From a virus (taxonomy: Duplodnaviria; Heunggongvirae; Uroviricota; Caudoviricetes): DNA of 28,988 nt. A program made the translations under genes and the position numbers. The DNA lies in the IMG/VR virus record IMGVR_UViG_2778261696_000006; one strand, 5' to 3'. The first letter of the stretch is position 1. Each line of letters begins with the position of its first letter. Positions 1 to 28,988 of the stretch are shown here, piece by piece. Under the pieces are notes generated by a model. The model was given only the letters and a program-made list of their open reading frames with translations, did not search any database and had not been told where the DNA came from.

Positions 1-17
1 AACACGAGCAAACAGAC

Positions 18-46
18 AAAAAAAGGGCCAGCCAATTGGCCAGCCC
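18..46 (-). terminator. Putative rho-independent terminator downstream of int
   Basis: On minus-strand RNA GGGCUGGCC-AAUU-GGCUGGCCC forms a 9-bp stem (two G-U pairs) followed by a U7 run; on the plus strand the stem has two mismatches and no U-tract. Confidence 0.45.
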
Positions 47-172
47 TTCTTAACAGGATGTCGCTTAAGCGAAATCTTAGTTAAGACGCTCCTATTAACA
101 CCCCACAGCGAACAAACACTTACCATATAAAACAACTAGTTAAAGTAATTTTTAATGCAGTGAATTGCAGTG

Positions 173-1222
173 TTATGCAACCTCTGCCGCCACATTGTCG
201 CCAACATACAGCGATAACGGATTGAGGGTTACAGCTTGTTCAAGGTGGTCAGGAGCAAAGTGCGCATACTTCATTGTTTCTCGAATATTGGCATGTCCGA
301 GAATTTTCTGCAGCACCAGTATATTCCCTCCGTTCATCATAAAATGCGCACCAAAAGTATGACGCAAAACGTGCGTCTTCTGCCCTTCCGTCAATTCAAT
401 ATTCGTTAGTTTGAGCATCTTTTTAAACTCCTGATAGCAGGGTTTAAACATTCTGCCTTGACGTACGGACAACTCGTCGTACAGCCATTTAGGAATAGGA
501 ACTGTGCGATTCTTCTTACCTTTGGTTTTGGTGAACGTTAGTTTATATGGAGAAAGTTGAGGTCGGGTCAATCTCTCCGCTTCCCCCCATCGAGCGCCGG
601 TTGCAAGGCACACCTTAACAATCATGGTGAGGTCTTCTTTGCCGTATTGCTCGCAGGCTCGAAACAGCTCCGGGAGCTGAGACAAAGTTAGCCAGGACAT
701 TTCTTTCTCAGCTTCTTTGAATACTCGGATCCCATCAAGTGGATTGGGTAGGCTCCACTCCCCTAACCGGCGGAGCTCATTAAACACTGCTTCTAGGTAT
801 TGTTGTTCGCGATTGACGGTTATAGGTTTGGCGATCCATTTCGAGGGGTCTTTATGATAACCATTGTCTATTTCACCACGTAATCGACGGTCACGATAAT
901 GAGCCCAGTCTTTCGCGGTAAGGCGAGATGCAATCGGGTCGCCAAGTCCATTACATACGATTTGAAGCTTTGCAAACCTCGACTTACTGGCGACTAACGC
1001 TTGACCGTGCAAATTGTGCCAAAGCTGAATAATCTCGCTTAAGCGTCGGCGGTCTTCTTTCTTGCCGAGCCACGGCTTATCTTCACTCTCGCTTTTGGTA
1101 AATGCTTCAAATGCCTCGGCCTCACCTTTGGTATTGAACTGCCGACGTATACGCCGTCCTTCTCGACCATTTGGATAGAGTTCACACAACCATTTTCCAC
1201 TTTTTTGTTTACTTACAGTCAT
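173..1222 (-). CDS. int: Phage integrase, tyrosine recombinase (P2/186 Int family)
   Basis: 349-aa ORF with ATG start; C-terminal HVLRHTF...MKYAH catalytic motifs typical of tyrosine recombinases; position at prophage end next to repressor. Confidence 0.9.
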   Translation of the reverse strand: MTVSKQKSGKWLCELYPNGREGRRIRRQFNTKGEAEAFEAFTKSESEDKPWLGKKEDRRRLSEIIQLWHNLHGQALVASKSRFAKLQIVCNGLGDPIASRLTAKDWAHYRDRRLRGEIDNGYHKDPSKWIAKPITVNREQQYLEAVFNELRRLGEWSLPNPLDGIRVFKEAEKEMSWLTLSQLPELFRACEQYGKEDLTMIVKVCLATGARWGEAERLTRPQLSPYKLTFTKTKGKKNRTVPIPKWLYDELSVRQGRMFKPCYQEFKKMLKLTNIELTEGQKTHVLRHTFGAHFMMNGGNILVLQKILGHANIRETMKYAHFAPDHLEQAVTLNPLSLYVGDNVAAEVA

Positions 1223-1246: not shown

Positions 1247-1585
1247 TTAATTACAAAGGGCTGTAGCGGCATCAATCACCGGTGAAATTGAAATTTTAAC
1301 GCCGTCATACTCAGGGTCATCCTTCCATACGTCATCTAAGTTAGACCCCTCCAGCTTTCCTGATTTAACAGCATCTACCGCCATGCCATTCAGAGGATAT
1401 CTATCATCAGTTTTGATGTCATACACAAAAGCATAAGCACGGTTAACACATGATACCTTTGCCTTTTCAAAGGTTAGAGGCCACTTGTCACCATATGCAG
1501 CGCCGTCTATCTCTTTAAACTTCTCAGCGGCTATGGCTGAGGAAGAAAGTGCAATGCAGACTATCGCAAATATAAACTTTTTCAT
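1247..1585 (-). CDS. Small secreted/periplasmic protein of unknown function (moron between cI and int)
   Basis: 112-aa ORF, N-terminal signal peptide MKKFIFAIVCIALSSSAIAAE, two Cys in mature part, strong RBS AAGGAG 6 nt upstream of ATG; resembles small YebY/DUF2511-type periplasmic proteins from memory only. Confidence 0.6.
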   Translation of the reverse strand: MKKFIFAIVCIALSSSAIAAEKFKEIDGAAYGDKWPLTFEKAKVSCVNRAYAFVYDIKTDDRYPLNGMAVDAVKSGKLEGSNLDDVWKDDPEYDGVKISISPVIDAATALCN

Positions 1586-1594: not shown

Positions 1595-2440
1595 TTAAAC
1601 ATGCTTTTCCAAAGTAAAAATAACCGCACCTGATGGTGTGATATCTGAAATATTACATTCAAACTCAGCAGACTTATTTGATAACCTGACCTTTCCGCCT
1701 GGCAACCTGATTACGTCAAAAACATCGAGTGCGCCATCAATACCAATAAGCCAGCGACCATTTCCTATCTTCGAGTTAGAACTATCAACAAGCCAAGATG
1801 TGCTCACACCATCAATAAACACTAAATCATCAGTATTTGATGGAACCATAGATATATCAGGAGTCCAGCGTCCGATATCTTTGAGTTCGCCCGCCTCGAG
1901 GCGGCACTTTCTAATCGTTAAAGCATTTGCCGGTTCACCATCATTACTGTTACGCATCTGGCCTTTTCCGGTTGATAACCATTCTAACGATACGCCAGTA
2001 TCAAGGGCGCAAGTGACAACCACGTCACCGGGGAAAAAATCGCGTCTAACCCAAGTGCTTATAGTGCCGGAAGATATACCTAATAAATCTCCAAGCTCTT
2101 TTTGCAGAGTAAAACCATACGCATCGAGAATCCGACGCAGAACCGCCCTCCCTCCATTTGCCATGATTTCATCATAGAGTTGCTTACCTTTAAGCTTAGT
2201 TTTCACCACTTCAAATCTTGCATTTGCAAGCTCACCATTAATTAGCCATCGCAGGTCAGCTCCAGTATCAAGAGCACACTCAACGAAAACGTTGCTAGGG
2301 ATTACGTTTCTAGCAAGCCAGCTACTCACGTTGTTTGCATGTATGCCAAGCCTTTCGGCTAGTTCCTTTTGCTGCTTAAAGCCGTATGCAGAAAGGACAC
2401 GTTCCAATGCGGCAGACGCATTAACATCATTTTTAGACAT
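1595..2440 (-). CDS. cI: 186-type CI immunity repressor with tandemly duplicated N-terminal HTH domain
   Basis: Track ORF 1595-2629 trimmed to internal ATG at 2440 (MSKNDVNA...); two copies of motif AYGF-QKEL-LGI...W...CALDTG-L-WL-G, C-terminal region resembles 186 CI C-terminal domain (...LPGGKV...FEC...). Confidence 0.75.
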   Translation of the reverse strand: MSKNDVNASAALERVLSAYGFKQQKELAERLGIHANNVSSWLARNVIPSNVFVECALDTGADLRWLINGELANARFEVVKTKLKGKQLYDEIMANGGRAVLRRILDAYGFTLQKELGDLLGISSGTISTWVRRDFFPGDVVVTCALDTGVSLEWLSTGKGQMRNSNDGEPANALTIRKCRLEAGELKDIGRWTPDISMVPSNTDDLVFIDGVSTSWLVDSSNSKIGNGRWLIGIDGALDVFDVIRLPGGKVRLSNKSAEFECNISDITPSGAVIFTLEKHV

Positions 2441-2461
2441 ATAACACCAACAAGAATTTTG

Positions 2462-2490
2462 TTTACAACCAAAATTTAGCGATCTATATT
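2462..2490 (+). promoter_or_regulatory. Putative rightward lytic promoter (pR-like): -35 TTTACA, 17-bp spacer, -10 TATATT
   Basis: Sigma70-like hexamers in the 113-bp cI/apl intergenic region, flanked by ACACC/GGTGT inverted half-sites (2444-2448, 2491-2495, 2511-2515). Confidence 0.4.
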
Positions 2491-2543
2491 GGTGTTCACC
2501 GACCAAGATGCACACCACTGCACTACATTTCAAACAACAGGAG

Positions 2544-2572
2544 ATAATGCGATATGTCAGATGCAAAATCAA
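2544..2572 (-). promoter_or_regulatory. Putative leftward lysogenic promoter (pL-like), convergent with pR
   Basis: On minus strand TTGATT (2567-2572) -17 bp- CATTAT (2544-2549); would give face-to-face transcription with the pR candidate as described for 186. Confidence 0.25.
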
Positions 2573-2925
2573 TCTCGACGCACGACTCGCAAAACTCACA
2601 AAATCAAACTGTGCTGCTAGATCCAACACAGTTTGATGCCATCGTTACCGCCATGCTGCCAGCTCTACAGACAATGATTCGCTCCGCTATGTCAGACACG
2701 ATGACTGTGAAAGACTTCGCCGCTACTCGCGGTGTTAGCGAGCGTCTGGTCTGGCAATGGCTCGATGAGGGAGTCCTTCTCAAAGCTCCGACCAAAGACT
2801 TTTCCAACAAAGAGGAAGCTGCTAAACGAAGCCGAACCCTCGTAAATGTAAAAGCATGGCGCGATAAGCTGACTCAACAAGCGATTGATTGTCGCTACAT
2901 CGACCAGCGCACCGCTCTTAACTGA
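2554..2925 (+). CDS. Apl/Cox-like HTH protein (putative excisionase and switch regulator); start uncertain
   Basis: 123-aa ORF, RBS AGGAG 9 nt upstream, HTH-like segment TVKDFAATRGVSERLVWQWLDEGVL; first gene of rightward early operon, position equivalent to 186 apl / P2 cox. Confidence 0.5.
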   Translation: MSDAKSISTHDSQNSQNQTVLLDPTQFDAIVTAMLPALQTMIRSAMSDTMTVKDFAATRGVSERLVWQWLDEGVLLKAPTKDFSNKEEAAKRSRTLVNVKAWRDKLTQQAIDCRYIDQRTALN

Positions 2926-2957: not shown

Positions 2958-3467
2958 ATGTTTGATTTTCAGGTTTCCAAACATCCCCACTATGACGAAG
3001 CATGCCGCATTTTCGCACAGCGTCACAACATGGCGAAGCTGGCCGAGCGTGCAGGTATGAACGTTCAAACGTTACGTAACAAGCTCAACCCGGAACAGCC
3101 TCACCAGTTCACGCCGCCTGAATTGTGGCTGCTGACTGACCTGACCGAAGACTCAACCCTCATTGATGGTTTTTTAGCGCAGATTCACTGCCTACCATGC
3201 GTGCCGGTTAATGAGTTGGCTAAAGACAAATTGCAGTCTTATGTCATGCGCGCAATGCGTGAACTCGGCGAACTGGCGAGCGGCGCGGTATCTGATGAAC
3301 GTCTGACCACTGCCCGTAAGCACAACATGATTGAAAGCGTTAACTCCGGCATTCGCATGTTGTCATTGTCGGCTCTGGCGCTGCATGCACGTCTGCAGAC
3401 TAATCCAGCTATGTCGAGCGTGGTCGATACCATGAGCGGTATTGGCGCATCGTTTGGTCTGATTTGA
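2958..3467 (+). CDS. cII: 186-type CII regulatory protein
   Basis: Track ORF trimmed to ATG at 2958 (MFDFQVSKHPHYDEACR...), matches remembered 186 CII N-terminus and length (169 aa); RBS AGAGGGA upstream. Confidence 0.8.
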   Translation: MFDFQVSKHPHYDEACRIFAQRHNMAKLAERAGMNVQTLRNKLNPEQPHQFTPPELWLLTDLTEDSTLIDGFLAQIHCLPCVPVNELAKDKLQSYVMRAMRELGELASGAVSDERLTTARKHNMIESVNSGIRMLSLSALALHARLQTNPAMSSVVDTMSGIGASFGLI

Positions 3468-3468
3468 G

Positions 3469-3675
3469 GTGCGTATGCTGAAAAGTGAACCGTCATTCGC
3501 ATCTCTGCTCGTTAAGCAAAGCCCCGGCATGCACTACGGCCACGGCTGGATCGCAGGTAAGGACGGCAAGCGCTGGCACCCGAGCCACTCGCAGGCTGAT
3601 TTACTGGCTGGCCTCTCTACTCAAAAGCGGGGGGGATCATGGCTATCGAAGCTGTTTCCGCGACTGTTCCGCTAA
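3469..3675 (+). CDS. Fil-like small protein (possible host cell-division inhibitor); start GTG 3469 or ATG 3475
   Basis: 68-aa ORF directly following cII stop (translational coupling), motif SPGMHYGHGWIAGKDGKRW; position equals 186 fil. Confidence 0.45.
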   Translation: MRMLKSEPSFASLLVKQSPGMHYGHGWIAGKDGKRWHPSHSQADLLAGLSTQKRGGSWLSKLFPRLFR

Positions 3676-3977
3676 AAGCGGGTGAACGTCTGGCCGGTCT
3701 CAATCATGTTGCCGAATTGCGCGCGAGATATTGGGGCGATAGCTGGAAAGAGGTTGAACGTTTTGTCGATGATATGCGCAATAAACGTGACCCACAATTT
3801 GAAGAAAATAATCGGGCGCTGGCCGCTATTTTCTTTCTGGCAAAAATACCGGCGGCTCGTCATGAACTCGAATTAAGTGAGCTGACTACTGACGAGAAAA
3901 AGGCGCTTATTACAGCGATGAATCATTTTCGTGCAGTAGTGAGCTTATTTCCCAAACGGCTAACCATGCCGAATTAA
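3639..3977 (+). CDS. Hypothetical early protein (position of 186 dhr-region genes)
   Basis: 112-aa ORF with ATG and G-rich RBS, overlaps preceding gene by 37 nt in another frame. Confidence 0.5.
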   Translation: MAIEAVSATVPLKAGERLAGLNHVAELRARYWGDSWKEVERFVDDMRNKRDPQFEENNRALAAIFFLAKIPAARHELELSELTTDEKKALITAMNHFRAVVSLFPKRLTMPN

Positions 3978-4044
3978 TCCAAACAGAAATTTAATGGCGT
4001 AAACCCGCCGGGCATCTTATTGCCCGAAATCAGGAGAGTTAATT

Positions 4045-4272
4045 ATGCGTAATACCGAAATCCGTAGTTTTAACACTGATAGCGATGCGCTGGCCGTATT
4101 GCTGACCGATGCAAAAAAAGAAGAGCGTAAAGACCGCGCGCTCGCTGTTTCCATCCGCCTTGAGGCGCTGGCTATCCATATTACCAGAGAGGGAATGAGC
4201 GGCACCGAAGCTGCCGAACTGCTGCGCCGTGAAGCAACCCGCTTTGAGAATGAATCACAGGAGCTGCACTAA
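4045..4272 (+). CDS. Hypothetical small early protein
   Basis: 75-aa ORF, RBS AGGAG 8 nt upstream of ATG, TAATG overlap with next gene. Confidence 0.55.
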   Translation: MRNTEIRSFNTDSDALAVLLTDAKKEERKDRALAVSIRLEALAIHITREGMSGTEAAELLRREATRFENESQELH

Positions 4273-4493
4273 TGGCCGACGCAATGGATTTAGCACAACT
4301 GCGCGAGCAGGAAGACCGCGAACGCCACATCAGCAACGCACGCACCCGTATCGCTGCACCTTCCCGTTTTCTTTGCGATGAATGTGACGCACCAATCCCG
4401 GAAGCTCGCCGCATTGCGATTCCGGGCGTGGCTTTTTGCGTAACCTGCCAGCAAATCGCAGAGCTAAAAAACAAACACTATCGGGGGGTATAA
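4272..4493 (+). CDS. TraR/DksA-family C4 zinc-finger protein
   Basis: 73 aa with C-x2-C-x17-C-x2-C (CDEC...CVTC) characteristic of TraR/DksA-type zinc fingers; lies immediately upstream of replication gene. Confidence 0.7.
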   Translation: MADAMDLAQLREQEDRERHISNARTRIAAPSRFLCDECDAPIPEARRIAIPGVAFCVTCQQIAELKNKHYRGV

Positions 4494-4494: not shown

Positions 4495-6717
4495 TTGGCT
4501 GTTCAATTCGCTTATCCGTGGAACGTTCCACGGTCGGCAATCTCCAGCCCATACCTTACTTATGCGCAACAGCATCGCCGCGACCGTATGTTCGCGGCTT
4601 TGCTGCATGCAAAAAAGGTGCTTTCTCTCCAGCCCGACTGCGTGCGGTTAGATGTTTATCGCACTGCTGCGGTGCTGGAGCAAAATCAGGGTAGTCAACG
4701 AGCCAATGCATTTTTAATCAGCTTCTGCAAAAAGGCATTGCCGCGTCTTGAACTGGTCGCAAAAAAATACGAATGCGCTGGTATCAACAGCAAGGTATCA
4801 ACCGCTGTTTTTGGAAGTCATTTTGATACTCAGCAAATGCAATATCTGTCGTCACGCATGGTTAATATGGTCGCCCGATATAACCGTCTCCCGGACATGT
4901 CGCGCGCTGATGTTGACCTGTTGGCCGCTGATATTGCTAATTTCATTCGTGGTGAACTTGCCAACATTAATGACCACGGATTCGGCGAGCTTAAAACGCT
5001 GTACACCTGGTATATTCGTGCTGGCTTTATTTCCCTCCAATTTAACGTTATCCCACCACATTGGGAGCGGGTTGAAAAAAAATATGTCGGTGCGGATGAA
5101 ATCGCACCGGCTATCGCCAAAATGTTTAACGATGGGTGGTGGCGCGGTCGTTTGCGCCGTGTTGCAGCTACGTGGCGCGAACACCTGCAAATTGCAGTCG
5201 GCAACGTCAGTAAGAAAAAAAACACTTACGCGAGTAAAAACTGCGTGACTGACTGGCGTGAACAAAAGCGCCGCACTCGTGAATTTCTCAAAGGTCTGGA
5301 TCTCGAAGACGAAGACGGCAACCGTATCAGCCTGATTGAAAAATATGATGGCTCAGTTGCTAACCCTGCGATTCGCCGCTGTGAGCTCATGACCCGCATT
5401 CGTGGGTTTGAAAACATCTGTAATGAGCTCGGTTATGTCGGTGAGTTTTACACTCTAACCGCGCCGTCAAAATATCACGCCACGACTAAAGCCGGTTACC
5501 GTAACAGCAAATGGAGCGGTGCCAGCCCGGCTGACACGCAAAACTATCTAACCGGTATCTGGGCGCGTATCCGTGCCAAACTACATCGGGAAGATGTCCG
5601 TATTTTCGGTATTCGTGTCGCCGAGCCTCATCACGACGGCACTCCACACTGGCACATGCTGATGTTCATGCTGCCGGAAGATGTTGAATATGTTCGCTCC
5701 ATCGTCCGTAAATACGCATGGAAAGAAGACCGCCACGAACTGAAAAGCGATAAATCCAAAAAAGCACGTTTCCACGCCGAGTCCATTGACCCGGAGAAAG
5801 GCAGTGCAACCGGCTATGTTGCTAAATACATCTCAAAAAATATCGACGGTTATGCTCTCGATGGTGAAACCGATGATGAAAGCGGTGAGCTGCTGAAAGA
5901 GACAGCCCCCGCCGTTTCAGCATGGGCTGCGCGCTGGCACATCCGTCAGTTTCAGTTTATTGGTGGTGCGCCGGTGACGGTTTACCGTGAGTTGCGTCGC
6001 CTCGCTGATACCGAAACCGCGCGCGGTCTGAGCGTTGAGTTTGCCGCCGTCCATGATGCCGCCGACGCTGGTGACTGGGCTGGTTATGTTAATGCTCAGG
6101 GTGGGCCGTTTGTCCGTCGCGATGATTTACAGGTGCGCACACTGTATGAACCGCGTACCGAGCTTAATCAGTACGGTGAGGAAACGGTATGTATTAAGGG
6201 GGTCTACGATTCCTCCATAGGTGCAGGGAGTCCGATTTTAACCCGGCTCACTCAGTGGAAGATTGTTCCGAAGCGTGCTGTTGATTTGGCCGTTGACCTT
6301 CAGGACGGCAAAGCCGTCCCTCGGAGTTCTGTCAATAACTGTACGGGAAGCGAAAGCGATCCACCGATACTGGATTTAACAAAACCACTGAGTCGGCGTG
6401 AAAGACGAGAATTGACCAACCGACTCAGGAAGCAAAAGCCAGCAGCACGGCGAAAACTCATCCACGGAACGGATGAGCAAAACGCAGCTATAGCTAAAAC
6501 TATCGACGAGATACATCTGACAACCGGCATTAATATCAGCCGGGGCGAAGCCCTGCACCTGATGGCCGGTGGTAAAAGTTGTTTTGATGGTAAATGGCTA
6601 CGCGGAACGGCCAAAGGAGAAATATTTTCCGCAGCACCATCGCATGAGGCTAAAGCTCGGAAAATCCTTAATCGTGTTGCGGCGATGGCTGAAGCATCAA
6701 AACCAATACATGAGTAA
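4495..6717 (+). CDS. A: Replication initiation protein A (rolling-circle HUH endonuclease); start is TTG 4495 or a downstream ATG
   Basis: 740-aa ORF containing HUH motif (TPHWHMLMF) and catalytic tyrosine motif YVAKYISKNIDGYALDG as in P2/186 gpA. Confidence 0.9.
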   Translation: MAVQFAYPWNVPRSAISSPYLTYAQQHRRDRMFAALLHAKKVLSLQPDCVRLDVYRTAAVLEQNQGSQRANAFLISFCKKALPRLELVAKKYECAGINSKVSTAVFGSHFDTQQMQYLSSRMVNMVARYNRLPDMSRADVDLLAADIANFIRGELANINDHGFGELKTLYTWYIRAGFISLQFNVIPPHWERVEKKYVGADEIAPAIAKMFNDGWWRGRLRRVAATWREHLQIAVGNVSKKKNTYASKNCVTDWREQKRRTREFLKGLDLEDEDGNRISLIEKYDGSVANPAIRRCELMTRIRGFENICNELGYVGEFYTLTAPSKYHATTKAGYRNSKWSGASPADTQNYLTGIWARIRAKLHREDVRIFGIRVAEPHHDGTPHWHMLMFMLPEDVEYVRSIVRKYAWKEDRHELKSDKSKKARFHAESIDPEKGSATGYVAKYISKNIDGYALDGETDDESGELLKETAPAVSAWAARWHIRQFQFIGGAPVTVYRELRRLADTETARGLSVEFAAVHDAADAGDWAGYVNAQGGPFVRRDDLQVRTLYEPRTELNQYGEETVCIKGVYDSSIGAGSPILTRLTQWKIVPKRAVDLAVDLQDGKAVPRSSVNNCTGSESDPPILDLTKPLSRRERRELTNRLRKQKPAARRKLIHGTDEQNAAIAKTIDEIHLTTGINISRGEALHLMAGGKSCFDGKWLRGTAKGEIFSAAPSHEAKARKILNRVAAMAEASKPIHE

Positions 6718-6777: not shown

Positions 6778-6811
6778 TTGCCAATACGTGCTACTGTATA
6801 AATATACAGTA
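6778..6811 (+). promoter_or_regulatory. SOS-regulated promoter: -35 TTGCCA (6778-6783) with LexA box TACTGTATAAATATACAGTA (6792-6811)
   Basis: Perfect 9-bp dyad arms CTGT-N8-ACAG matching LexA consensus, overlapping the -10 region 20 nt upstream of ATG 6831. Confidence 0.75.
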
Positions 6812-6830
6812 ACCCTGTGGGAGGGATTTC

Positions 6831-7013
6831 ATGGTTGGCGAACATTTCAGCCGAACGCAGCAAAAGTGGGCTTGTGTGCAATTTATTGCCGAGGTATCTC
6901 TGATTGCAAACTGCAAGCCATCAGACTTAAAGCTCGCGCTCACTCTCATTGCAGACCTAGCAAACAGCGAAAATAACGAAACCGAAGATGATAATTTTTA
7001 TAAGGCTGATTAG
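6831..7013 (+). CDS. LexA-controlled small protein, candidate Tum-type antirepressor
   Basis: 60-aa ORF with RBS GGGAGGG, immediately downstream of LexA box; positional analogy to the 186 p95/tum operon; no sequence-level confirmation possible here. Confidence 0.4.
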   Translation: MVGEHFSRTQQKWACVQFIAEVSLIANCKPSDLKLALTLIADLANSENNETEDDNFYKAD

Positions 7014-7016: not shown

Positions 7017-7247
7017 ATGAGAATCAATATCACGTTGGATAAAGAGCAAAAATTAGGGCAACAGATCATTGATGCTTTTCAGAATGAAATAACACATCGA
7101 GTACAATGCGTTTTTCCTGCAACAAAAGTTAACGTTAAGAAAGGGTCAATGACTGGTGTAGAGGCTATCGGATTCGATAAAGAGGCGGACAGAGAAACAT
7201 TAGGCAGCATATTACAAGAGATTTGGGAAGACGATAGCTGGCGTTAA
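7017..7247 (+). CDS. dinI: DinI-family protein
   Basis: 76 aa, MRINITLDKEQ...LQEIWEDDSW resembles DinI family (MRIEV...ILQETWE); second gene of the LexA-box operon. Confidence 0.75.
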   Translation: MRINITLDKEQKLGQQIIDAFQNEITHRVQCVFPATKVNVKKGSMTGVEAIGFDKEADRETLGSILQEIWEDDSWR

Positions 7248-7265
7248 ACAGAATAACCGTGCTGG

Positions 7266-7329
7266 CGCAAAAACTAGCTTTTTGCGTCGGCGGGGTTGAG
7301 TAACGAGCCCACGAGGCTTAAGTCCTGCC
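7266..7329 (+). repeat. Structured repeat copy R1 (hairpin plus GGCGGGGTTGA...AACGAGC...ACGAGGC...CCTGCC)
   Basis: Hairpin CGCAAAAA-CTAGC-TTTTTGCG followed by conserved GC-rich core; about 80 percent identical to copy at 7672-7733. Confidence 0.6.
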
Positions 7330-7446: not shown

Positions 7447-7656
7447 ATGCATCGACTACCAGGTGAAATTCCGCAGCACAAAACTAAATGCATCAAACTG
7501 ATGGCCATCGTTCATCGTCTGCAGCAGATAATGGTCAATGAGAATTTGACACCCGCCGAGCTGGTCGGGTGTGCCGAAATAGTCAGGGATAATTACGGCA
7601 AGCTGGATAGCATCAGCAAGCCGACACATTACTCACCGCCACCACGTCGACCATAG
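7447..7656 (+). CDS. Orphan 69-aa protein flanked by R1/R2 repeats
   Basis: ATG with RBS GAGG about 8 nt upstream; no recognisable motif; lies in the A-to-cos accessory interval. Confidence 0.45.
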   Translation: MHRLPGEIPQHKTKCIKLMAIVHRLQQIMVNENLTPAELVGCAEIVRDNYGKLDSISKPTHYSPPPRRP

Positions 7657-7671
7657 ATAACGCCGCCGGAG

Positions 7672-7733
7672 CTGAAACTCGCTTTCAGGTCTGGCGGGGT
7701 TGAACAACGAGCTACGCGAGGCGTTAGCCCGCC
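7672..7733 (+). repeat. Structured repeat copy R2 (hairpin plus GGCGGGGTTGA...AACGAGC...ACGCGAGGC...CCCGCC)
   Basis: Hairpin CTGAAA-CTCGC-TTTCAG then conserved core; outer GGCGGG/CCCGCC can pair (R1 keeps pairing via a G-U). Confidence 0.6.
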
Positions 7734-7938: not shown

Positions 7939-7957
7939 GGCGTGGCGGGGAAAGCAT
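7939..7957 (+). other. cos: cos cohesive-end site (19-nt, 186-type)
   Basis: GGCGTGGCGGGGAAAGCAT matches the remembered 186 cohesive end (P2: GGCGAGGCGGGGAAAGCAC); the following sequence TGCGCGCCAGCGGTGGTGCG...CGTCGTGACGGCGCT resembles the P2 left end as I recall it; location between A-side accessory genes and 3' end of Q. Confidence 0.65.
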
Positions 7958-8161: not shown

Positions 8162-8386
8162 ATGGATAACTATCATATTACAAAAGATGGCGATAAGTGG
8201 AAGTTGCAAAAAGAGGGCAATGATCGCCCTAGCAAGACCGCGACCACAAAGGCCGAGCTGATTAAAACAACATCTGAGTTTATGTCGAACAAAACAGGCT
8301 CGGTCAAAATTCACAAGGAAGATGGGAAAATTCAGGAAGAACGCACTTATCAGAGAAAAGATGATCCTAAAAAGTCTAAAGGCTAA
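8162..8386 (+). CDS. DUF2188-like small protein (moron between cos and portal gene)
   Basis: 74 aa, RBS GGAGG 5 nt upstream of ATG; motif YHITKDGDKWKLQKEG...KAELIKTTSEF...VKIHKEDGKIQEERTY resembles DUF2188 family from memory. Confidence 0.55.
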   Translation: MDNYHITKDGDKWKLQKEGNDRPSKTATTKAELIKTTSEFMSNKTGSVKIHKEDGKIQEERTYQRKDDPKKSKG

Positions 8387-9471: not shown

Positions 9472-9472
9472 T

Positions 9473-11242: not shown

Positions 11243-11407
11243 TGATGCCTCGCCGTAGTGGATTCAGGGCAAGGCTACTTAATGGCCGTCAGTGATTCGC
11301 TAAGGTGCTGTTGTGTGGGCGGTTGTCCAGTCGTCATTGGTGGTCTGGCGTGTCCTGAGTCTGGAAACTGGCGGTGACCAGTAACCTCAACCTCAGGACT
11401 CCTGACA
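11243..11407. promoter_or_regulatory. Divergent late promoter region (P-Q leftward, O-N-M-L rightward)
   Basis: 165-bp intergenic region between divergent late operons as in P2; no strict TGT-N12-ACA activator motif found by eye. Confidence 0.4.
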
Positions 11408-12262: not shown

Positions 12263-12338
12263 TAAACCGCAGACCAGAAACCGGGCGGTAACTCCGCCCG
12301 ATGCAGTGACTAACCGATAAATTCAAACAGGAAATACT

Positions 12339-13406: not shown

Positions 13407-13410
13407 GCCC

Positions 13411-14966: not shown

Positions 14967-14969
14967 ACC

Positions 14970-18225: not shown

Positions 18226-18231
18226 ATCACT

Positions 18232-21853: not shown

Positions 21854-22210
21854 TTAATATCCCATTGCAATGTAATACGCATCAGAAGATGCACCATATC
21901 CTGAACCGGGCGACACAGTAATACTAAATCCAGTGTTCTGGACATTTGTCGCCGATACAGTCGGCTGCCCTGACGCGCCAGTAACGTTCAATGTAACTGT
22001 GACAGCAAGGACTCTTGAGAATGTCATCGGGAACGTCATCCCGTATGTTGAAGATACATTAGGGGAGCCATTCAACTGACCGCACTGTAAAATTAATCCA
22101 GACGGAAATTTTTGCGCAGCAGCCGTTGCGGTATTACTTGACGCGAACAGGCTCATATCAGGTATCTGATTCGCCCCTGTACCTACATTCCTTTTAGCTG
22201 CTTCTCCCAA
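21854..22210 (-). CDS. Alternative tail fibre C-terminal segment (H'), lacks own start; expressed only after inversion
   Basis: Open frame reads through the right crossover site as ...GLGEAAKRN..., in register with GLGE at the left site in H; first codon in track is TTG, not a real start. Confidence 0.65.
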
Positions 22211-22227
22211 ACCAACCTTTTAGAAAA
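22202..22227 (+). repeat. Gin/Hin-family recombination site (right), TTCTCCCAAACC-AA-CCTTTTAGAAAA
   Basis: Inner half-site plus core identical to reverse complement of left site (14/14); outer half-site deviates (CC where the half-site consensus has GG). Confidence 0.65.
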
Positions 22228-22281: not shown

Positions 22282-22564
22282 ATGTTTATCGGTTATGTAC
22301 GTGTATCAACAAATGACCAGAACACCGCATTACAGCGAAATGAACTGGAGTGCGCAGGATGTGAGCTGATTTTCGAAGATAAAATCAGCGGCAAAACATC
22401 AGACTGGCCGGGGCTAAAGAGGTCACTCAGAACCTTGTCAGAGGGCGATACGCTTGTGGTCTGGAAACTGGATCGCCTCGGGTATCTCAACGCTATACAA
22501 AAAATTTCCCGCATCCGTTGCTGATGTCTCAATGTGTCAGACATCGCCCAACACTGACAAATAG
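22282..22564 (+). pseudogene. Serine DNA invertase (Gin/Hin/Pin/Cin family) remnant with internal deletion
   Basis: N-terminal 66 codons intact (MFIGYVRVSTNDQNT...VVWKLDRLG, catalytic Ser present) then frame breaks; a different frame encodes ...STLYKKFPA, which I recall as the extreme C-terminus of Gin; roughly 110 codons of catalytic and HTH domains missing. Confidence 0.75.
22524..22544 (+). promoter_or_regulatory. Candidate late-promoter activator site upstream of FI (ATGTCT-N9-AGACAT dyad)
   Basis: Perfect 6-bp inverted repeat centred about 89 bp upstream of FI ATG; P2 late promoters carry a TGT-N12-ACA-like dyad near -55, spacing here is N13. Confidence 0.3.
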
Positions 22565-22622: not shown

Positions 22623-23801
22623 ATGAGTGATTTTCACCACGGCGTGCAGGTGCTTGAGATTAACGACGGCACCCGCGTCATTTCCACTGTTGCAACCGCA
22701 ATCGTCGGCATGGTCTGTACAGCCAGCGATGCGGATGCGGCAACCTTTCCCCTCAACGAGCCGGTACTGATTACCAATGTGCAAAGCGCCATTGCGAAAG
22801 CCGGTAAAAAAGGCACGCTGGCCGCGTCCCTGCAGGCCATCGCCGACCAGTCAAAACCTGTCACAGTTGTCGTGCGCGTGGACGAAGGTACCGGCGACGA
22901 CGCCGAAGCGCAGACAATTTCCAATATCATCGGCGGAACGGATGAGAACGGTAAATACACCGGCATTAAAGCGCTGTTGACTGCCGAAGCGGTCACCGGC
23001 GTCAAGCCGCGCATTCTCGGCGTGCCGGGGCTGGACACCAAAGAAGTGGCGGTTGCACTGGCGTCGGTCTGTATTAGCCTGCGCGCGTTTGGTTACATCA
23101 GCGCATGGGGATGCAAGACCATTTCCGAAGCAATGGCCTATCGCGAGAATTTCAGCCAGCGCGAGCTGATGGTCATCTGGCCTGATTTCCTTGCATGGGA
23201 TACCACCACAAACGCCACCGCACCGGCATACGCAACTGCGCGCGCACTCGGCCTGCGTGCCTATATCGACCAGACCGTCGGCTGGCATAAAACCCTGTCT
23301 AACGTCGGCGTGCAGGGTGTCACCGGCATCAGTGCGTCAGTGTTTTGGGATTTGCAGGCATCTGGCACCGATGCTGACCTGCTCAACGAGGCCGGGGTCA
23401 CGACGCTGGTGCGCAAAGATGGTTTCCGCTTTTGGGGTAACCGCACCTGCTCTGATGACCCGCTTTTCCTGTTTGAGAACTACACCCGCACCGCGCAGGT
23501 GCTGGCCGACACGATGGCCGAGGCTCACATGTGGGCGGTCGATAAGCCCATTACCGCATCGCTCATCCGTGACATTGTCGACGGCATTAATGCCAAATTC
23601 CGCGAGCTGAAATCAAATGGCTACATCGTGGACGGTGAATGCTGGTTCGACGAGGAATCGAATGACAAGGAAACCCTCAAGGCCGGGAAACTGTATATCG
23701 ACTACGACTATACGCCGGTTCCACCACTGGAAAGCCTGACCCTGCGCCAGCGTATCACCGATAAATATCTGGTGAATCTGGCCGAATCGGTCAACAGCTA
23801 A
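22623..23801 (+). CDS. FI: Tail sheath protein (P2 gpFI)
   Basis: Track ORF trimmed to ATG 22623 (MSDFHHGVQVLEINDGTRV...), matches remembered P2 FI; RBS GGAG. Confidence 0.9.
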   Translation: MSDFHHGVQVLEINDGTRVISTVATAIVGMVCTASDADAATFPLNEPVLITNVQSAIAKAGKKGTLAASLQAIADQSKPVTVVVRVDEGTGDDAEAQTISNIIGGTDENGKYTGIKALLTAEAVTGVKPRILGVPGLDTKEVAVALASVCISLRAFGYISAWGCKTISEAMAYRENFSQRELMVIWPDFLAWDTTTNATAPAYATARALGLRAYIDQTVGWHKTLSNVGVQGVTGISASVFWDLQASGTDADLLNEAGVTTLVRKDGFRFWGNRTCSDDPLFLFENYTRTAQVLADTMAEAHMWAVDKPITASLIRDIVDGINAKFRELKSNGYIVDGECWFDEESNDKETLKAGKLYIDYDYTPVPPLESLTLRQRITDKYLVNLAESVNS

Positions 23802-23816
23802 GGAGCCTGAAACAAC

Positions 23817-24335
23817 ATGGCACTACCCCGCAAACTCAAATATCTGAACATGTTTAACGACGGCCTTAGCTACATGGGCGTTGTTGAATCCGTGACGCTG
23901 CCGAAGCTGACCCGCAAACTCGAAAACTATCGCGGCGGTGGCATGAATGGCGCGGCGGCGATTGACCTCGGTCTCGACGATGATGCGTTAACCGTCGAAT
24001 GGTCTGTCGGTGGCCTGCCTGATGTGGCGCTGTGGGCGCAGTACGCCGCGCCGGGTGCTGACGCTGTGCCGTTGCGTTTTGCTGGCTCTTACCAACGTGA
24101 CGACACTGGCGAAATCGTGGCGGTCGAGGTGGTCATGCGTGGCCGTCATAAAGAAATCGACGGCGGCGAGAATAAGCAGGGTGAAAACACCTCGACCAAA
24201 CTGTCGACCGTATGCACCTATTACCGCCTCACGATTGATGGTAGCGACGTCATCGAAATCGATACCGTCAACATGGTTGAGAAGGTGAACGGCGTCGACC
24301 GTCTGGAACAGCACCGCCGCGCAATCGGGCTGTAA
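23817..24335 (+). CDS. FII: Tail tube protein (P2 gpFII)
   Basis: 172 aa, RBS AAGGAG, P2 FII size and position. Confidence 0.9.
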   Translation: MALPRKLKYLNMFNDGLSYMGVVESVTLPKLTRKLENYRGGGMNGAAAIDLGLDDDALTVEWSVGGLPDVALWAQYAAPGADAVPLRFAGSYQRDDTGEIVAVEVVMRGRHKEIDGGENKQGENTSTKLSTVCTYYRLTIDGSDVIEIDTVNMVEKVNGVDRLEQHRRAIGL

Positions 24336-24398
24336 TTCCCTGATCGGTCAGCACTGCTGGCCGGTTATTAATCCCCATTCAGAGCAGAGAAAAACATC

Positions 24399-24734
24399 AT
24401 GGCAAAAGCACCACGTAAAACCGCTGAATTTGTTGATATGGCTGGCAATGAAATTGACACCGTAAACCCGAACGTCGTGACCCTCGACAAGCCGATTAAG
24501 CGCGCCGGTCAGACGATTGATAAAGTCACACTGATTGAGCCGAACGCCGGTACCCTGCGCGGTGTCAGTCTGGCAGCGGTGGCGCAGTCCGAAGTCGATG
24601 CGCTGATTAAGGTATTGCCACGCATGACCTACCCCGCGCTTACGGCGCAGGAGCTTACCGCAATGAACCTGCCCGATATGCTGTCGCTGGCCGCTAAGGT
24701 GATTGGTTTTTTGTCACCGGCTTCGGCGGAGTAG
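24399..24734 (+). CDS. E: Tail assembly chaperone E (P2 gpE)
   Basis: 111 aa, between tail tube and tape measure genes. Confidence 0.85.
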   Translation: MAKAPRKTAEFVDMAGNEIDTVNPNVVTLDKPIKRAGQTIDKVTLIEPNAGTLRGVSLAAVAQSEVDALIKVLPRMTYPALTAQELTAMNLPDMLSLAAKVIGFLSPASAE

Positions 24735-24886
24735 ATTTCCCGCCCGACCTGTCGACCGATGACCTGATGGCGGATATCGCGGTGATATTCCACTGGCCGC
24801 TATCAGAGCTCTATTCCCTGAGCCTGACCGAGCTCATCACATGGCGCGAAAAGGCGCTGCAGCGTAGCGGACACCACAATGAGTAA
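24399..24886 (+). CDS. Tail assembly chaperone E+E' produced by programmed -1 frameshift at T TTT TTG (24707-24713)
   Basis: Slippery heptamer in E frame (ggT TTT TTG); -1 frame continues ...DLMADIAVIFHWPLSELYSLSLTELITWREKALQRSGHHNE and stops at 24884-24886, overlapping T start. Confidence 0.75.
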
Positions 24887-27323
24887 TAACCTGAGACTTG
24901 AGGTTTTGCTGAAAGCGGTCGACCAGGCGACCCGACCGCTTAAATCCATCCAGACCGCGAGTAAAACCCTGTCGGGCGATATTCGCGACACACAAAAAGG
25001 GCTGCGTGACCTGAACGGGCAGGCCGCGAAAATCGACGGCTTTCGCAAAACCAGCGCTCAACTGGCCGTAACCGGCCAGTCGCTGGAGAAGGCAAAGCGC
25101 GAGGCTGAAGCGCTTGCCACGCAATTCAAAAATACTGAGCGCCCGACGCGAGCGCAGGCACAGGTGCTCGAATCCGCAAAACGTGCCGCCGAGGGGCTGC
25201 AGGTTAAATACAACAGCCTCACCGAGTCGGTTAAACGCCAGCAACGCGAGCTAGGTGCCGCCGGTATCAATACCCGCAATCTGGCAAACGATGAGCGGGG
25301 GCTTAAAACACGCATCAGCGAGACGACGGCGCAGCTCAACCGGCAGCGCGAAGCATTGGCGAAGGTCAGCGCACAGCAGGCGCACCTAAACCGAGTGAAA
25401 GAGCGATATAAATCGGGTAAGGAACTTGCCGGTAACATGGCCGCTGCAGGTGCTGCCGGGGTCGGTATTGCGACAGCGGGAACGATGGCCGGGGTTAAAT
25501 TGCTGATGCCCGGTTATGACTTTGCGCAAAAAAACTCCGAGCTGCAAGCTGTGCTCGGGGTCGATAAGCAGTCACCAGAAATGGAGGCGCTACGCAAACA
25601 GGCACGCCAGCTCGGTGACAATACAGCCGCTTCTGCTGATGATGCAGCCAGTGCGCAGATTATTATCGCCAAAGGGGGCGGCGATGCGGCAGCCATTCAG
25701 GCGACGACACCGGTCACCCTCAATATGGCGCTTGCCAACCGTCGCACGATGGAAGAAAACGCCGCATTACTGATGGGGATGCGCTCTGCGTTTCAGCTTT
25801 CCAATGACAAGGTGGCGCACATTGGCGACGTTCTGTCGACGGTGATGAATAAAACTGCTGCCGATTTCGACGGGCTGAGCGATGCGCTGACATACGCCGC
25901 GCCGGTGGCGAAAAATGCCGGTGTCAGCATTGAAGAAACTGCCGCAATGGTGGGCGCCCTGCATGACGCCAAAATCACCGGCTCGATGGCCGGCACCGGG
26001 AGCCGTGCGGTTTTAAGCCGCCTGCAGGCTCCGACCGGTAAAGCGTGGGATGCGCTTAAGGAGCTGGGTGTCAAAACTTCCGACAGTAAAGGCAACACGC
26101 GCCCGATTTTTACCATCCTCAAAGAAATACAAGCCAGCTTTAAGCGCAACAACCTCGGTACAGGTCAAAAAGCCGAGTATATGAAAACGATATTCGGCGA
26201 GGAAGCCAGTTCCGCTGCAAGTGTGTTAATGGCCGCAGCGGCCAGTGGAAAACTGGATGAACTGACCAAGATAATTAAGGATTCTGACGGTAAAACCGAG
26301 GAATTGGTTAAGGTCATGCAGGATAACTTAGGTGGCGACTTCAAAGAGTTTCAATCCGCTTATGAGGCCGTCGGTACCGACCTCTACGACCAGCAAGATA
26401 GCTCATTGCGTCAGCTAACTCAGACAGCAACACGGTATGTGCTAAAGCTTGATGGCTGGATCAAAGACAACAAGGAGTTAGCGGAAACTATCGGCATCAT
26501 CGCCGGTGGTGCGCTGGCGCTGATTGGTATCATCGGCGGCATTGGTCTCGTTGCGTGGCCGGTTGTCATGGGGATTAATGCCATTATCGCCGCTGCTGGC
26601 GTGCTGGGTACGGTCTTTACTGTCGTCGGTAGTGCCATTGCGACAGCGCTCGGTGCGATTACCTGGCCGATAGTGGCCGTCGGTGCGGCGATTGTGGCGG
26701 GGGCGCTACTCATCCGTAAATATTGGGAGCCCATCAGCGCATTTTTCTCGGGAGTGATTGAGGGCATCATGAGTGCCTTTGCCCCAGTCGGGGAAATGTT
26801 CGCTCCACTGGCTCCCATTTTTGATGGTCTCGGCGAGAAACTGCGCGGCGTCTGGCAGTGGTTTAAAGACCTGATAGCACCGGTTAAGGCCACGCAGGAA
26901 ACGCTTGATAGCTGCAAAAATGTCGGCGTCATATTTGGTCAGGCACTGGCCTCTGCCTTGATGGCTCCGCTCAATGTTTTTAACAAGCTGCGCAGCGGTG
27001 TCGACTGGCTTCTCGAAAAGCTCGGCATCATCAACAAAGAGTCGGACAGCCTCGACCAGACCGCCGCCAAAACCAATGCCGCCACACAGGGTAATTCCTA
27101 CATCCCGGCAACCAGCACATATGGCGGCTATCAGGCTTATCAGCCAGTTACCGCACCGGCGGGGCGCTCTTACATTGACCAGAGCAAAAGCGAATACAAC
27201 ATCAATCTGCCGGGAGGTGTTGCGCCGGGGCATCAGCTTGACAGACAACTACGCGACACGCTCGAACAGATTGAGCGCGATAAACGCGCCCGCCAGCGTG
27301 CCAACATGACCCACGACTATTGA
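24879..27323 (+). CDS. T: Tail tape measure protein (P2 gpT)
   Basis: 814 aa, low-complexity Ala/Gly-rich central region, P2 T size and position. Confidence 0.9.
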   Translation: MSNNLRLEVLLKAVDQATRPLKSIQTASKTLSGDIRDTQKGLRDLNGQAAKIDGFRKTSAQLAVTGQSLEKAKREAEALATQFKNTERPTRAQAQVLESAKRAAEGLQVKYNSLTESVKRQQRELGAAGINTRNLANDERGLKTRISETTAQLNRQREALAKVSAQQAHLNRVKERYKSGKELAGNMAAAGAAGVGIATAGTMAGVKLLMPGYDFAQKNSELQAVLGVDKQSPEMEALRKQARQLGDNTAASADDAASAQIIIAKGGGDAAAIQATTPVTLNMALANRRTMEENAALLMGMRSAFQLSNDKVAHIGDVLSTVMNKTAADFDGLSDALTYAAPVAKNAGVSIEETAAMVGALHDAKITGSMAGTGSRAVLSRLQAPTGKAWDALKELGVKTSDSKGNTRPIFTILKEIQASFKRNNLGTGQKAEYMKTIFGEEASSAASVLMAAAASGKLDELTKIIKDSDGKTEELVKVMQDNLGGDFKEFQSAYEAVGTDLYDQQDSSLRQLTQTATRYVLKLDGWIKDNKELAETIGIIAGGALALIGIIGGIGLVAWPVVMGINAIIAAAGVLGTVFTVVGSAIATALGAITWPIVAVGAAIVAGALLIRKYWEPISAFFSGVIEGIMSAFAPVGEMFAPLAPIFDGLGEKLRGVWQWFKDLIAPVKATQETLDSCKNVGVIFGQALASALMAPLNVFNKLRSGVDWLLEKLGIINKESDSLDQTAAKTNAATQGNSYIPATSTYGGYQAYQPVTAPAGRSYIDQSKSEYNINLPGGVAPGHQLDRQLRDTLEQIERDKRARQRANMTHDY

Positions 27324-27336
27324 GGGGGATTAAACG

Positions 27337-27822
27337 ATGATGCTTGCTCTCGGAATGTTTGTGTTTGAACTTCGCACCCTGCCTTACCAGTCGATGCAGC
27401 ATTCGAAAGATTATCGCTGGGTGTCCAATGACCGGGTGGGTAAACCACCTGCCTATCAGTTTCTTGGCGAGGGAGAAAATTCTATACAGCTTGCTGGTAC
27501 GCTATACCCCGCTATCACTGGCGGTTGGATCTCACTTAAGGCTGTAGAGGTGATGGCCAATGAAGGCAGAGCGTGGCCGTTGATAGAGGGAACCGGAAAT
27601 ATCCTCGGGGTGTATATCGTCGATAAAGTATCGACTACACGCACCGAGTTTTTCAGTGATGGTGCGGCCAGAAAGATTGATTTCACGCTTTCGCTAAAAC
27701 GGGTTGATGAATCGCTGACAGAGATGTTTGGTGACCTGAATAAACAGGCCAGTGAGCTTCTCGGCTCTGCCGGTAATTTGACAGATAAACTGCAGGGTAT
27801 GCCCGGAGGTTTCACTGCATGA
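27337..27822 (+). CDS. U: Tail protein U (P2 gpU)
   Basis: 161 aa, P2 U size and position. Confidence 0.85.
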   Translation: MMLALGMFVFELRTLPYQSMQHSKDYRWVSNDRVGKPPAYQFLGEGENSIQLAGTLYPAITGGWISLKAVEVMANEGRAWPLIEGTGNILGVYIVDKVSTTRTEFFSDGAARKIDFTLSLKRVDESLTEMFGDLNKQASELLGSAGNLTDKLQGMPGGFTA

Positions 27823-28988
27823 TAACGGGGATGGCAATTGACGCCGGTGCCAGCCTTGCACCGGCTTTTATGCTGACGCTGAACAGTCAGGACATTACCA
27901 GCAACTTCAGCGACCGGCTGATTTCTCTCACCATGACGGACAATAGGGGCTTTGAAGCTGACCAGCTCGACATTGAGCTCGATGACACCGATGGGAAAGT
28001 CGAGTTACCCCTGCGCGGGGCAGTGCTGACGTTGTGGCTTGGCTGGCAGGGTTCGGCGCTGCTGAATAAGGGGGATTTTACGGTCGATGAGATTGAGCAC
28101 CGGGGGGCTCCTGATACCCTGACCATCCGGGCGCGCAGCGCGGACTTTCGCGGCACGCTAAATTCCAGGCGTGAAGAGTCATGGCACGACACCACCATCG
28201 GCGAACTGGTCAGTACCATCGCAAAGCGCAACAAACTGACGGCCAGCATTGCGGAATCGCTGAAAAAAATCCCGGTACCGCATATCGACCAGTCGCAGGA
28301 ATCCGACGCGGTATTTTTGAGTCGACTGGCTGACCGCAACGGGGCAACGGTATCGGTGAAGGCAGGGAAACTGTTGTTTCTGAAAGCCGGTAGTGCGATG
28401 ACGGCCAGCGGCAAACCCGTCCCGCAAATGACGCTGACCCGCAGTGATGGTGACCGTCATCAGTTTGCCATTGCCGACCGTGGGGCTTATACCGGCGTCA
28501 CTGCTAAATGGTTGCACACCAAAGACCCGAAGCCACAAAAGCAGAAAGTAACGCTGAAACGCAAGCCAAAAGAGAAGCACCTGCGCGCACTGGAACACCC
28601 AAAAGCAAAGCCGGTCAGCAAAAAGACAAAGGTCAAAAAAGAACAGGAAGCACGTGAGGGTGAGTACATGGCCGGTGAAGCCGATAACGTGCTGGCGCTG
28701 ACGACGGTCTATGCCTCAAAGGCACAGGCGATGCGCGCCGCTCAGGCTAAGTGGGATAAACTGCAGCGAGGCGTTGCGGAGTTTTCAATCACACTGGCGC
28801 TAGGGCGAGCGGATTTATTTCCTGAGACGCCTGTACGCGTGTCAGGCTTTAAGCGCGTCATAGACGAGCAGGCATGGTTAATCAGCAAGGTGACCCACAA
28901 CCTCAATAATAACGGTTTCACGACGGGCTTAGAGCTTGAGGTTAAACTCTCCGATGTGGAGTACAGCTCAGAAGAAAATGAGGAGTGA
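27819..28988 (+). CDS. D: Tail protein D (P2 gpD), complete; stop at window end
   Basis: 389 aa, overlapping start with U stop, P2 D size and position. Confidence 0.85.
   Translation: MITGMAIDAGASLAPAFMLTLNSQDITSNFSDRLISLTMTDNRGFEADQLDIELDDTDGKVELPLRGAVLTLWLGWQGSALLNKGDFTVDEIEHRGAPDTLTIRARSADFRGTLNSRREESWHDTTIGELVSTIAKRNKLTASIAESLKKIPVPHIDQSQESDAVFLSRLADRNGATVSVKAGKLLFLKAGSAMTASGKPVPQMTLTRSDGDRHQFAIADRGAYTGVTAKWLHTKDPKPQKQKVTLKRKPKEKHLRALEHPKAKPVSKKTKVKKEQEAREGEYMAGEADNVLALTTVYASKAQAMRAAQAKWDKLQRGVAEFSITLALGRADLFPETPVRVSGFKRVIDEQAWLISKVTHNLNNNGFTTGLELEVKLSDVEYSSEENEE

Follow-up and report, generated by a model that had tools for sequence, protein, structure and literature searches.

Must a temperate phage whose lysogeny genes recall those of 186 and whose late genes run in the order of P2 be a hybrid of the two? 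The question is raised by a 28,988-nucleotide (nt) stretch of viral DNA (IMG/VR record IMGVR_UViG_2778261696_000006; the window, meaning the whole stretch analysed), which a preliminary description had read as a 186-type control region joined to a P2-type structural block. Our analysis indicates that the window is very probably an intact-looking Escherichia coli prophage of the PSP3 type, belonging to the 186-like genus Eganvirus (Peduoviridae), and that its modules all derive from the Eganvirus gene pool. We hold the same high confidence in the explanation taken whole, that is, the identity of the element, the family-level order of its late genes, its proposed workings and the points at which it exchanges accessory DNA. 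The kind of prophage is ordinary and already described (the PSP3 database record; Nilsson et al. 2011, PMC3448106), and the initial finding contained nothing new in this respect.

Each gene was compared by tblastn with 186, P2, PSP3, Midge and 613R3, and nucleotide identity was followed along the window by sliding comparison. The late genes stand in the P2 order (Q P / O N M L X Y K lysB lysC R S / V W J I H G / FI FII E T U D), as had been stated. Their products, however, are 87–99% identical to 186/PSP3 proteins versus 53–93% to those of P2, and the late DNA is ~85–98% identical to 186/PSP3 versus 63–88% to P2, with no switch to P2-level identity anywhere. Thus, the "P2-type structural block" and the proposed 186 × P2 join both fell away. 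Because 186 has the same P2-colinear late region, colinearity with P2 provides no evidence for a join. In our reading, the P2-like order was inherited from the ancestor of the family and did not arise by a 186 × P2 join, and the true mosaicism is fine-scale exchange within the Eganvirus gene pool. Compared with 613R3, the window is ~99–100% identical except in DUF2511-cI (1250–2500), the cos-Q spacer, an invertible segment (20360–22200) and the middle of gene T, and among the IMG/VR relatives the alleles of int, DUF2511, cI and apl are shuffled independently of one another. The "186-type control region" holds only in part: CII, Fil and the CI C-terminus fit the term, while the integrase, the DUF2511 gene, the N-terminal part of CI, the Apl analogue and a Tum split into TumA and TumB follow PSP3 (identities to 186 in Table 1).

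A megablast search of phage records with the first 25 kb of the window agrees with this placement. The 25 matches listed were headed by 613R3 (96.7% identity, 90% of the query), followed by RCIP0057, Midge, SW9, SEN1, PSP3, EtG, Yersinia Eganvirus isolates and 186; P2 was not among these 25. Genus-level similarity (about 70% or more, coverage × identity) was reached with PSP3 (82% × 87.4%, ~72%) and Midge (82% × 91.5%, ~75%), and 186 gave ~61% (68% × 89.7%), all of these being rough megablast figures and not formal intergenomic distances. Assignment to Peduovirus (P2 proper) is contradicted by CI and the Apl analogue, neither of which has a P2 match, and by an early region that has no nucleotide similarity to P2.

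In E. coli EC12 the element is flanked by yfiB and by rplS, at whose 3′ end it is inserted. The 13-bp core found at 79–91 and again at the rplS 3′ end identifies positions 1–78 as host DNA and sets the prophage at ~29.35 kb, of which the window carries ~28.9 kb; ogr and attR, the missing parts, lie just past the window end in EC12. The window aligns to the EC12 chromosome at 100% identity throughout, one inverted block excepted, and the EC15 and EC18 prophages are 100% identical to it, orientation included. The cargo interval 6700–8450 is 100% identical in all three strains. Low G + C stretches (43–47%, versus 55–62% in the late genes) coincide with the three cargo intervals.

Table 1 Features of the window, with positions, strands and the evidence for each.
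Feature	Position	Strand	Evidence or remark
Host E. coli DNA downstream of yfiB	1..78		100% identity to EC12; yfiB end directly left of position 1
attL core AGTTAAGACGCTC	79..91	+	13-mer repeated at rplS 3′ end, ~456 bp past window end in EC12
Tyrosine integrase, PSP3 type	173..1222	-	Pfam Int_N and Phage_integrase; 91% to PSP3, 51% to 186, 37% to P2
Secreted YebY-like DUF2511 protein (PSP3 orf28 homologue)	1247..1585	-	PF10709 1e-18
CI repressor	1595..2440	-	Two PF07022 and PF16452 (5e-19); 73% to PSP3 CI, 32% to 186 CI
cI-apl intergenic switch region (pR, operators)	2441..2553		Putative promoter TTTACA-17 nt-TATATT at ~2463-2491, read directly
Apl/Cox analogue, PSP3 gp30 type	2554..2925	+	phrog_3554 3e-75; weak Cox-like match
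CII	2958..3467	+	PF06892 1e-46; 98% to 186 CII
Fil	3475..3675	+	PGAP-called frame, PF10893; alignment residues 1-36 identical to 186 Fil
Variable early genes DUF5347, DUF2732, TraR/DksA zinc finger	3639..4493	+	Pfam; presence and identity differ among 186, P2, PSP3, Midge
Replication endonuclease A	4495..6717	+	PF05840 2e-130; 90% to PSP3, 82% to 186, 38% to P2
LexA box of p95-like SOS promoter, CTGTATAAATATACAG	6794..6809	+	Sole CTGT-N8-ACAG in window; perfect box ahead of tumA
TumA, presumed antirepressor	6831..7013	+	98% to PSP3 TumA, annotated "UV induction of prophage"
TumB, DinI-like	7017..7247	+	PF06183 2e-17; 70% to C-terminal part of 186 Tum
Hairpin repeat copy 1	7253..7308	+	Directly 3′ of tumB stop codon
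orf69 (PSP3 gp37 homologue)	7447..7656	+	phrog_11386 1e-46; 90% to PSP3 gp37
Hairpin repeat copy 2	7657..7712	+	Directly 3′ of orf69 stop codon
cos, 19-nt cohesive end GGCGTGGCGGGGAAAGCAT	7939..7957	+	GGCGTGGCGGGGAAAGCA at 7939-7956 matches searched 186-type pattern exactly
74-residue DUF2188 protein, cos-portal spacer	8162..8386	+	PF09954 7e-18
Head, packaging, lysis and tail-completion genes	8425..17177		Q, P minus; O, N, M, L, X, Y, K, lysB, lysC, R, S plus
Baseplate V, W, J, I and constant N-terminal part of tail fibre H	17246..20359	+	tblastn
Left crossover site TTCTTAAAAACCTTGGTTTGGGAGAA	20334..20359	+	Inverted-repeat pair I2; close fit to Mu gix TTATCCAAAACCTCGGTTTACAGGAA
Invertible segment	20360..22200		Hc1 (to 20856), G (20856-21458) plus; G′ (21430-21882), Hc2 (21854-22200) minus
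Right crossover site, reverse complement TTTCTAAAAGGTTGGTTTGGGAGAAG	22201..22226	-	Degenerate outer half
Serine invertase pseudogene, internal deletion	22282..22524	+	PGAP marks pseudogene
Tail genes FI, FII, E(+E′), T, U, D	22623..28988	+	88-99% to 186, 58-88% to P2

CI consists of an extra N-terminal helix-turn-helix (HTH) domain followed by a complete 186-like CI; residues 100–274 of the window protein align to residues 10–182 of the 186 CI structure (PDB 2FJR, 4e-21). The 186-like C-terminal domain (PF16452) that had been described was thus confirmed, and CII, Fil and the LexA-box operon are likewise all present. The extra domain, HTH1, is the most variable part of CI among the relatives (47–61% identity versus 78–90% for HTH2), which suggests that HTH1 sets immunity specificity. 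The switch region at 2441–2553 diverges along with cI (60–68% to relatives by sliding identity). The Apl analogue is 76% identical to PSP3 gp30 and 98–99% identical to its counterparts in Midge and 613R3. P2-like regulatory regions have been described as sets of exchangeable modules, in a study that noted a longer CI in PSP3 and found the PSP3 Cox/Apl analogue to be a singleton (Nilsson et al. 2011, PMC3448106); the tandem-HTH CI was described in that 2011 comparison only as having a "longer C-terminal domain".

The fil locus holds an overlapping open reading frame (ORF) in a second frame (3485–3685), which gave tblastn matches to 186, PSP3 and Midge (83–86%) and no Pfam match; these matches probably reflect high DNA conservation of fil. 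For gene A, PGAP places the start at 4588. The proposed scheme of operation is modelled throughout on the homologues in 186 and PSP3. CI, combining the extra HTH with a 186-like repressor whose C-terminal domain forms wheels, would hold the lytic promoter pR off, and the lysogenic operon would be read leftward through cI, the DUF2511 gene and int, lysogeny having been set up by CII. On excision of the prophage the Apl analogue would assist Int, and the DNA would be replicated by A.

The Eganvirus trait of a LexA-repressed tum operon between A and cos is present here, its antirepressor activity being predicted, and the LexA box at 6794–6809 aligns with the annotated LexA site of 186 (29044–29063). 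DNA damage would take LexA off this box and switch on tumA, tumB and orf69, upon which TumA would inactivate CI; terminase would then cut at cos (7939–7957). The two hairpin copies form a 56-nt direct repeat with 71% mutual identity, each with a stem of ~17 bp, and the differences between them are compensating. They occupy the positions held in 186 by the terminators t95a and t95b around orf97, and they may mark the exchange point of the cassette downstream of tum. The ORF-free stretch 7657–7938 was considered as a small RNA locus and the candidate was rejected: Rfam returned nothing at gathering thresholds and a chance snoRNA match at E = 0.26. The stretch is the conserved cos flank that the window shares with 186, the conserved cos region covering 7659–8028. 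Across the window, Rfam found no RNA family.

The interval between G and FI had been described as carrying an invertase remnant. The remnant is real, yet this understates the locus, which comprises an entire tail-fibre cassette of the invertible kind. The segment is bracketed by inverted 26-bp crossover sites (core AAACC-NN-GGTTT), and Pfam identified Collar, Caudo_TAP (twice) and Gp53-like_C within it; it encodes two alternative H C-termini, each with its own chaperone. EC12 carries exactly this segment inverted (20334–22226 with the crossover sites, corresponding to 10947–12823 of the EC12 locus, L006), the other 27 kb being identical, and EC15 and EC18 carry the segment in the orientation of the window. 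The fibre stays in frame either way, at 372 or 322 residues, and inversion would swap the H C-terminus together with its chaperone, altering host range. Thus, the fibre switch is active, or was lately active, among sibling clinical isolates despite an internally deleted invertase.

Residues 1–67 of that invertase align to residues 1–67 of Mu Gin, followed by an out-of-frame jump to codons that match Gin 172–186, so that roughly residues 68–171 are lacking. Since the cis invertase is inactive, some other cellular invertase would have to do the flipping. Sequences resembling the invertase 5′ region occur at three places in EC12 and at two each in EC15 and EC18, which implies at least one further invertase-like locus per chromosome, and inversion by a trans-acting invertase is the likely mechanism. 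The Fis enhancer of the Hin system measures 65 bp and sits ~100 bp away from a crossover site (PMC3798978). The corresponding position here, ~22326–22390, falls inside the retained 5′ remnant, which is 72% identical at the DNA level to the Mu gin 5′ region. The dead invertase gene may be kept for its cis enhancer, with other prophages supplying the invertases that throw the host-range switch. Prophages of TK3888 and TW10598 contain this pseudogene too, and the 613R3 invertase is truncated as well.

Could the window nevertheless descend from a recombination event that brought a 186-type region for lysogeny and induction next to structural genes of the P2 type? Besides the shared late-gene order, the element resembles P2 in having no extra gene between Q and P, where 186, PSP3 and Midge have one, and its endolysin K scores marginally higher against P2 K (93% identity) than against the 186 endolysin (92%). 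The gene order, however, is equally that of 186, the cos is the 186/PSP3 sequence, and 613R3, the nearest relative, is likewise without a Q-P insert. Almost all late proteins are nearer to 186/PSP3 than to P2, nucleotide identity is about 92% to 186/PSP3 versus about 76% to P2, and the sliding comparison reveals no breakpoint. Such a recombinant is exceedingly unlikely. A different reading takes the prophage for a decaying cryptic element whose variable intervals are deletion scars and not exchange cassettes, as might be argued from the invertase pseudogene, an unusually small A-Q hotspot and the empty S-V spacer. Against this, the 30-odd essential genes are all full length (100% coverage), no damage is seen in cos, att, the LexA box or ogr, the fibre segment still changes orientation, and phage particles have been obtained of near-identical relatives, e.g., Midge and the Yersinia Eganvirus isolates. 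We therefore regard decay as very improbable and favor an intact-looking Eganvirus prophage.

Several points nonetheless tell against our interpretation. Inducibility and particle production are predicted from homology, as are the roles of TumA, the Apl analogue and the tandem-HTH CI, which follow their PSP3 and 186 counterparts; moreover, TumA had no tblastn match to 186 Tum at E ≤ 1e-3. The ogr gene and attR were seen in the sibling genome only. In addition, the trans-acting invertase was not pinned down in the EC12, EC15 and EC18 chromosomes, and the inversion could in principle have arisen by RecA recombination across the 21-bp repeats or stem from a population that was mixed when assembled.

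Accessory DNA in the window occupies three family-typical exchange points. Non-core genes are indeed present at the cI-int junction (1247–1585, DUF2511), in the A-cos-Q interval (6720–8424; tumA, DinI-like tumB, orf69, cos and DUF2188) and between G and FI, as had been reported; the claim that they occur only there proved too strict. The fil-A early operon (DUF5347, DUF2732, TraR) also differs among relatives, the lysis cassette of Midge is replaced by one with another holin and endolysin, and P2 and 613R3 have a gene between S and V. The extra gene that 186, PSP3 and Midge carry between Q and P, the portal and terminase genes, is 747 bp long ("W", terminase-like). In the window the Q/P junction lies at 9471–9473.

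These positions correspond to known hotspots. The cos-proximal A-Q interval is the main hotspot of the P2 family (Rousset et al. 2022, PMC9122126), and minor hotspots have been found at integrase-primase, integrase-att and late (tail) genes (de Sousa et al. 2026, bioRxiv 10.64898/2026.02.27.708500). The A-Q cargo set was in fact already catalogued, because Table S5A of Rousset et al. lists a hypothetical + hypothetical + DUF2188 + DinI set in which the accessions of tumA, orf69 and DinI are those of EC12. Hence the observation that cargo is limited to small proteins at a few fixed positions is supported, yet it was published in 2022 and 2026.

The DUF2511 protein matches the YebY structure (PDB 7N0J, 4e-8), and both residues aligned to the YebY disulfide cysteines are Cys. 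It would be a secreted YebY-like protein produced in lysogens. The order int-DUF2511-cI is found in 31 of 34 IMG/VR loci, and DUF2511 alleles range over 63–100% identity while the flanking int alleles range over 91–100% (loci L029–L059), a diversity that would fit a protein meeting a variable partner. A single immunity cassette made of DUF2511 and cI, hinted at by 613R3, was rejected, as five loci (L045–L048 and L051) combine a cI of 98–99% identity with a DUF2511 of 64–65%.

The preliminary description had found no nuclease, ATPase or reverse transcriptase in the cargo and had named a known multi-gene defence system as the result that would overturn it. Twenty proteins (10 cargo, 10 early or fibre) were scanned with the hidden Markov models of PADLOC-DB v2, and no known defence system was found among them, structural genes being left out and the PADLOC system rules not applied; the earlier statement therefore stands on these models. 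The only match outside HTH regions was that of DUF2188 to the single-gene candidate PDC-S16 (PDLC04941; 1.3e-14, model positions 4–72 of 75). The other matches were weak and fell in the HTH regions of CI and the Apl analogue. A complete known defence system is found in only 49% of P2-like elements (bioRxiv 10.64898/2026.02.27.708500).

Compared with 186, the cos-Q spacer is ~290 bp longer here owing to the inserted DUF2188 gene, which was absent by tblastn from 186, P2, PSP3, Midge and 613R3. In other enterobacterial prophages the gene lies 37–38 bp from the portal stop codon beside varied A-cos cargo (reverse transcriptase + AAA ATPase; RNase_T + HIRAN; SocA + HNH). Homologues 72–86% identical occur in Enterobacteriaceae, Pseudomonas, Vibrio and Aeromonas, thus in several gammaproteobacterial orders, and also in assemblies labelled as other phyla. 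A phage-database search returned a lone distant match, to a Streptococcus satellite, indicating that DUF2188 is essentially absent from sequenced phage isolates and common in prophages. The Pseudomonas gene adjoins a large SIR2_2-domain gene and a DpnII/MboI-like gene, a neighborhood that suggests a defence island, and the table of Rousset et al. shows P4 hotspots carrying AAA_21 + DUF2188 + HNH trios. The AlphaFold model (pLDDT 84) has the topology strand-strand-strand-helix-strand-strand. A structure search of the PDB gave nothing at E ≤ 0.001, the best relevant match, the weakly HicB-like 3k6q, having a probability of 0.82 over 41 columns (E = 0.37); a sequence search of the PDB gave no match. 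In the literature the family is uncharacterised and linked to defence islands, and a HicB-like antitoxin fold has been proposed for it, with HicB or PDB 5JN6 as the structures it should resemble; no experimental report of phage protection by PDC-S16/DUF2188 was found there. A scan of the plus strand found no sigma-70 promoter for the gene.

Does the cargo then serve an anti-phage or anti-defence function, with DUF2188 and possibly the secreted DUF2511 protein protecting the lysogen or the phage? The match of DUF2188 to PDC-S16 over the whole model, the spread of its close homologues across four bacterial groups, its Pseudomonas and P4 neighborhoods and its published tie to defence islands are all consistent with this. 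So are the DUF2511 alleles, which are more diverse than int and assort independently of cI, and a structural relative of DUF2511, MlbQ, which is a lantibiotic self-resistance protein. PDC-S16 is, however, a candidate only, neither protein contains an enzymatic domain, no significant structural neighbor was returned for DUF2188, and about half of P2-like prophages are without a known defence system. We consider such a function rather unlikely. We are slightly more doubtful that DUF2188 is a broadly acting accessory factor kept in the cos-portal spacer while the A-cos cargo turns over. It might be an orphan antitoxin of the HicB-like kind, acting against toxin-antitoxin or abortive-infection systems of the host, or else a defence consisting of a single protein; if true, either would be the first function for DUF2188/PDC-S16.

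The genes of the head, packaging, lysis and tail-completion region are all full length, with the 186/PSP3 and P2 identities given above for the late proteins. J, I and H are 97–100% identical to those of 613R3 and Midge over the compared region, versus 46–80% to those of 186, PSP3 and P2. In the middle of the tape-measure gene T (25500–26500), nucleotide identity to 613R3 falls to 66–89%, while the rest of the tail operon is 99–100% identical; this dip looks like a local recombination patch.

The window is of use as a negative case: the prophage belongs to the P2 family, and no recognised defence system occupies its hotspots. Two side points might repay a small experiment, namely the conserved mobile 74-residue protein by cos and the fibre switch with a deleted invertase.

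How, then, does the element compare with known systems? As elsewhere in the P2 family, its cargo sits between A and Q beside cos, between integrase and primase genes and among the late genes, though here with no recognised defence system. The Salmonella phage PSP3 (Eganvirus PsP3, NC_005340) shares the order int, DUF2511 (orf28), long CI (287 residues versus 281 in the window), gp30, cII, fil ... A, tumA, tumB, gp37, cos, and its late proteins are 87–100% identical, the tail-fibre region aside. The cos sequences match, the PSP3 record stating that its cos is the same as that of 186. At 73% identity for cI and 66% for DUF2511, the immunity type is probably different. PSP3 further differs in having the extra Q-P gene, gp35, gp38 and a long non-invertible H/G, and it has neither an invertase nor a DUF2188 gene between cos and Q.

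Phage 186 (Eganvirus ev186, U32222) shares the CI C-terminal domain, CII, the Fil N-terminus, the LexA-controlled p95 operon, cos and late genes that are 87–99% identical; the annotation of its fibre gene includes the relic of a Mu-like crossover site. In contrast, its CI has a single HTH, its Tum is one fused protein, its integrase is 51% identical and directs integration at ileY, and it has no DUF2511. It carries dhr, orf79–84 and orf97, which are absent here, and its J, I and H are 46–79% identical. The Escherichia prophage 613R3 (vB_EcoM-613R3, ON470592), already noted as the top match over the first 25 kb, shares the yfiB/rplS site, the crossover sites and a truncated invertase. It differs in its DUF2511-cI alleles, in three more genes around cos, in the absence of DUF2188, in a YjcF-like gene between S and V and in the unrelated content of its invertible segment.

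The fibre cassette itself resembles the Din-family systems Mu G/Gin, P1 C/Cin and e14 P/Pin, with 26-bp inverted sites in a fibre gene, two opposed C-termini with their chaperones, an adjacent serine invertase gene and both orientations observed. It is distinguished from these systems by the deletion in its cis invertase and by its setting, a P2-family phage in which the segment lies where P2 carries Z/fun.

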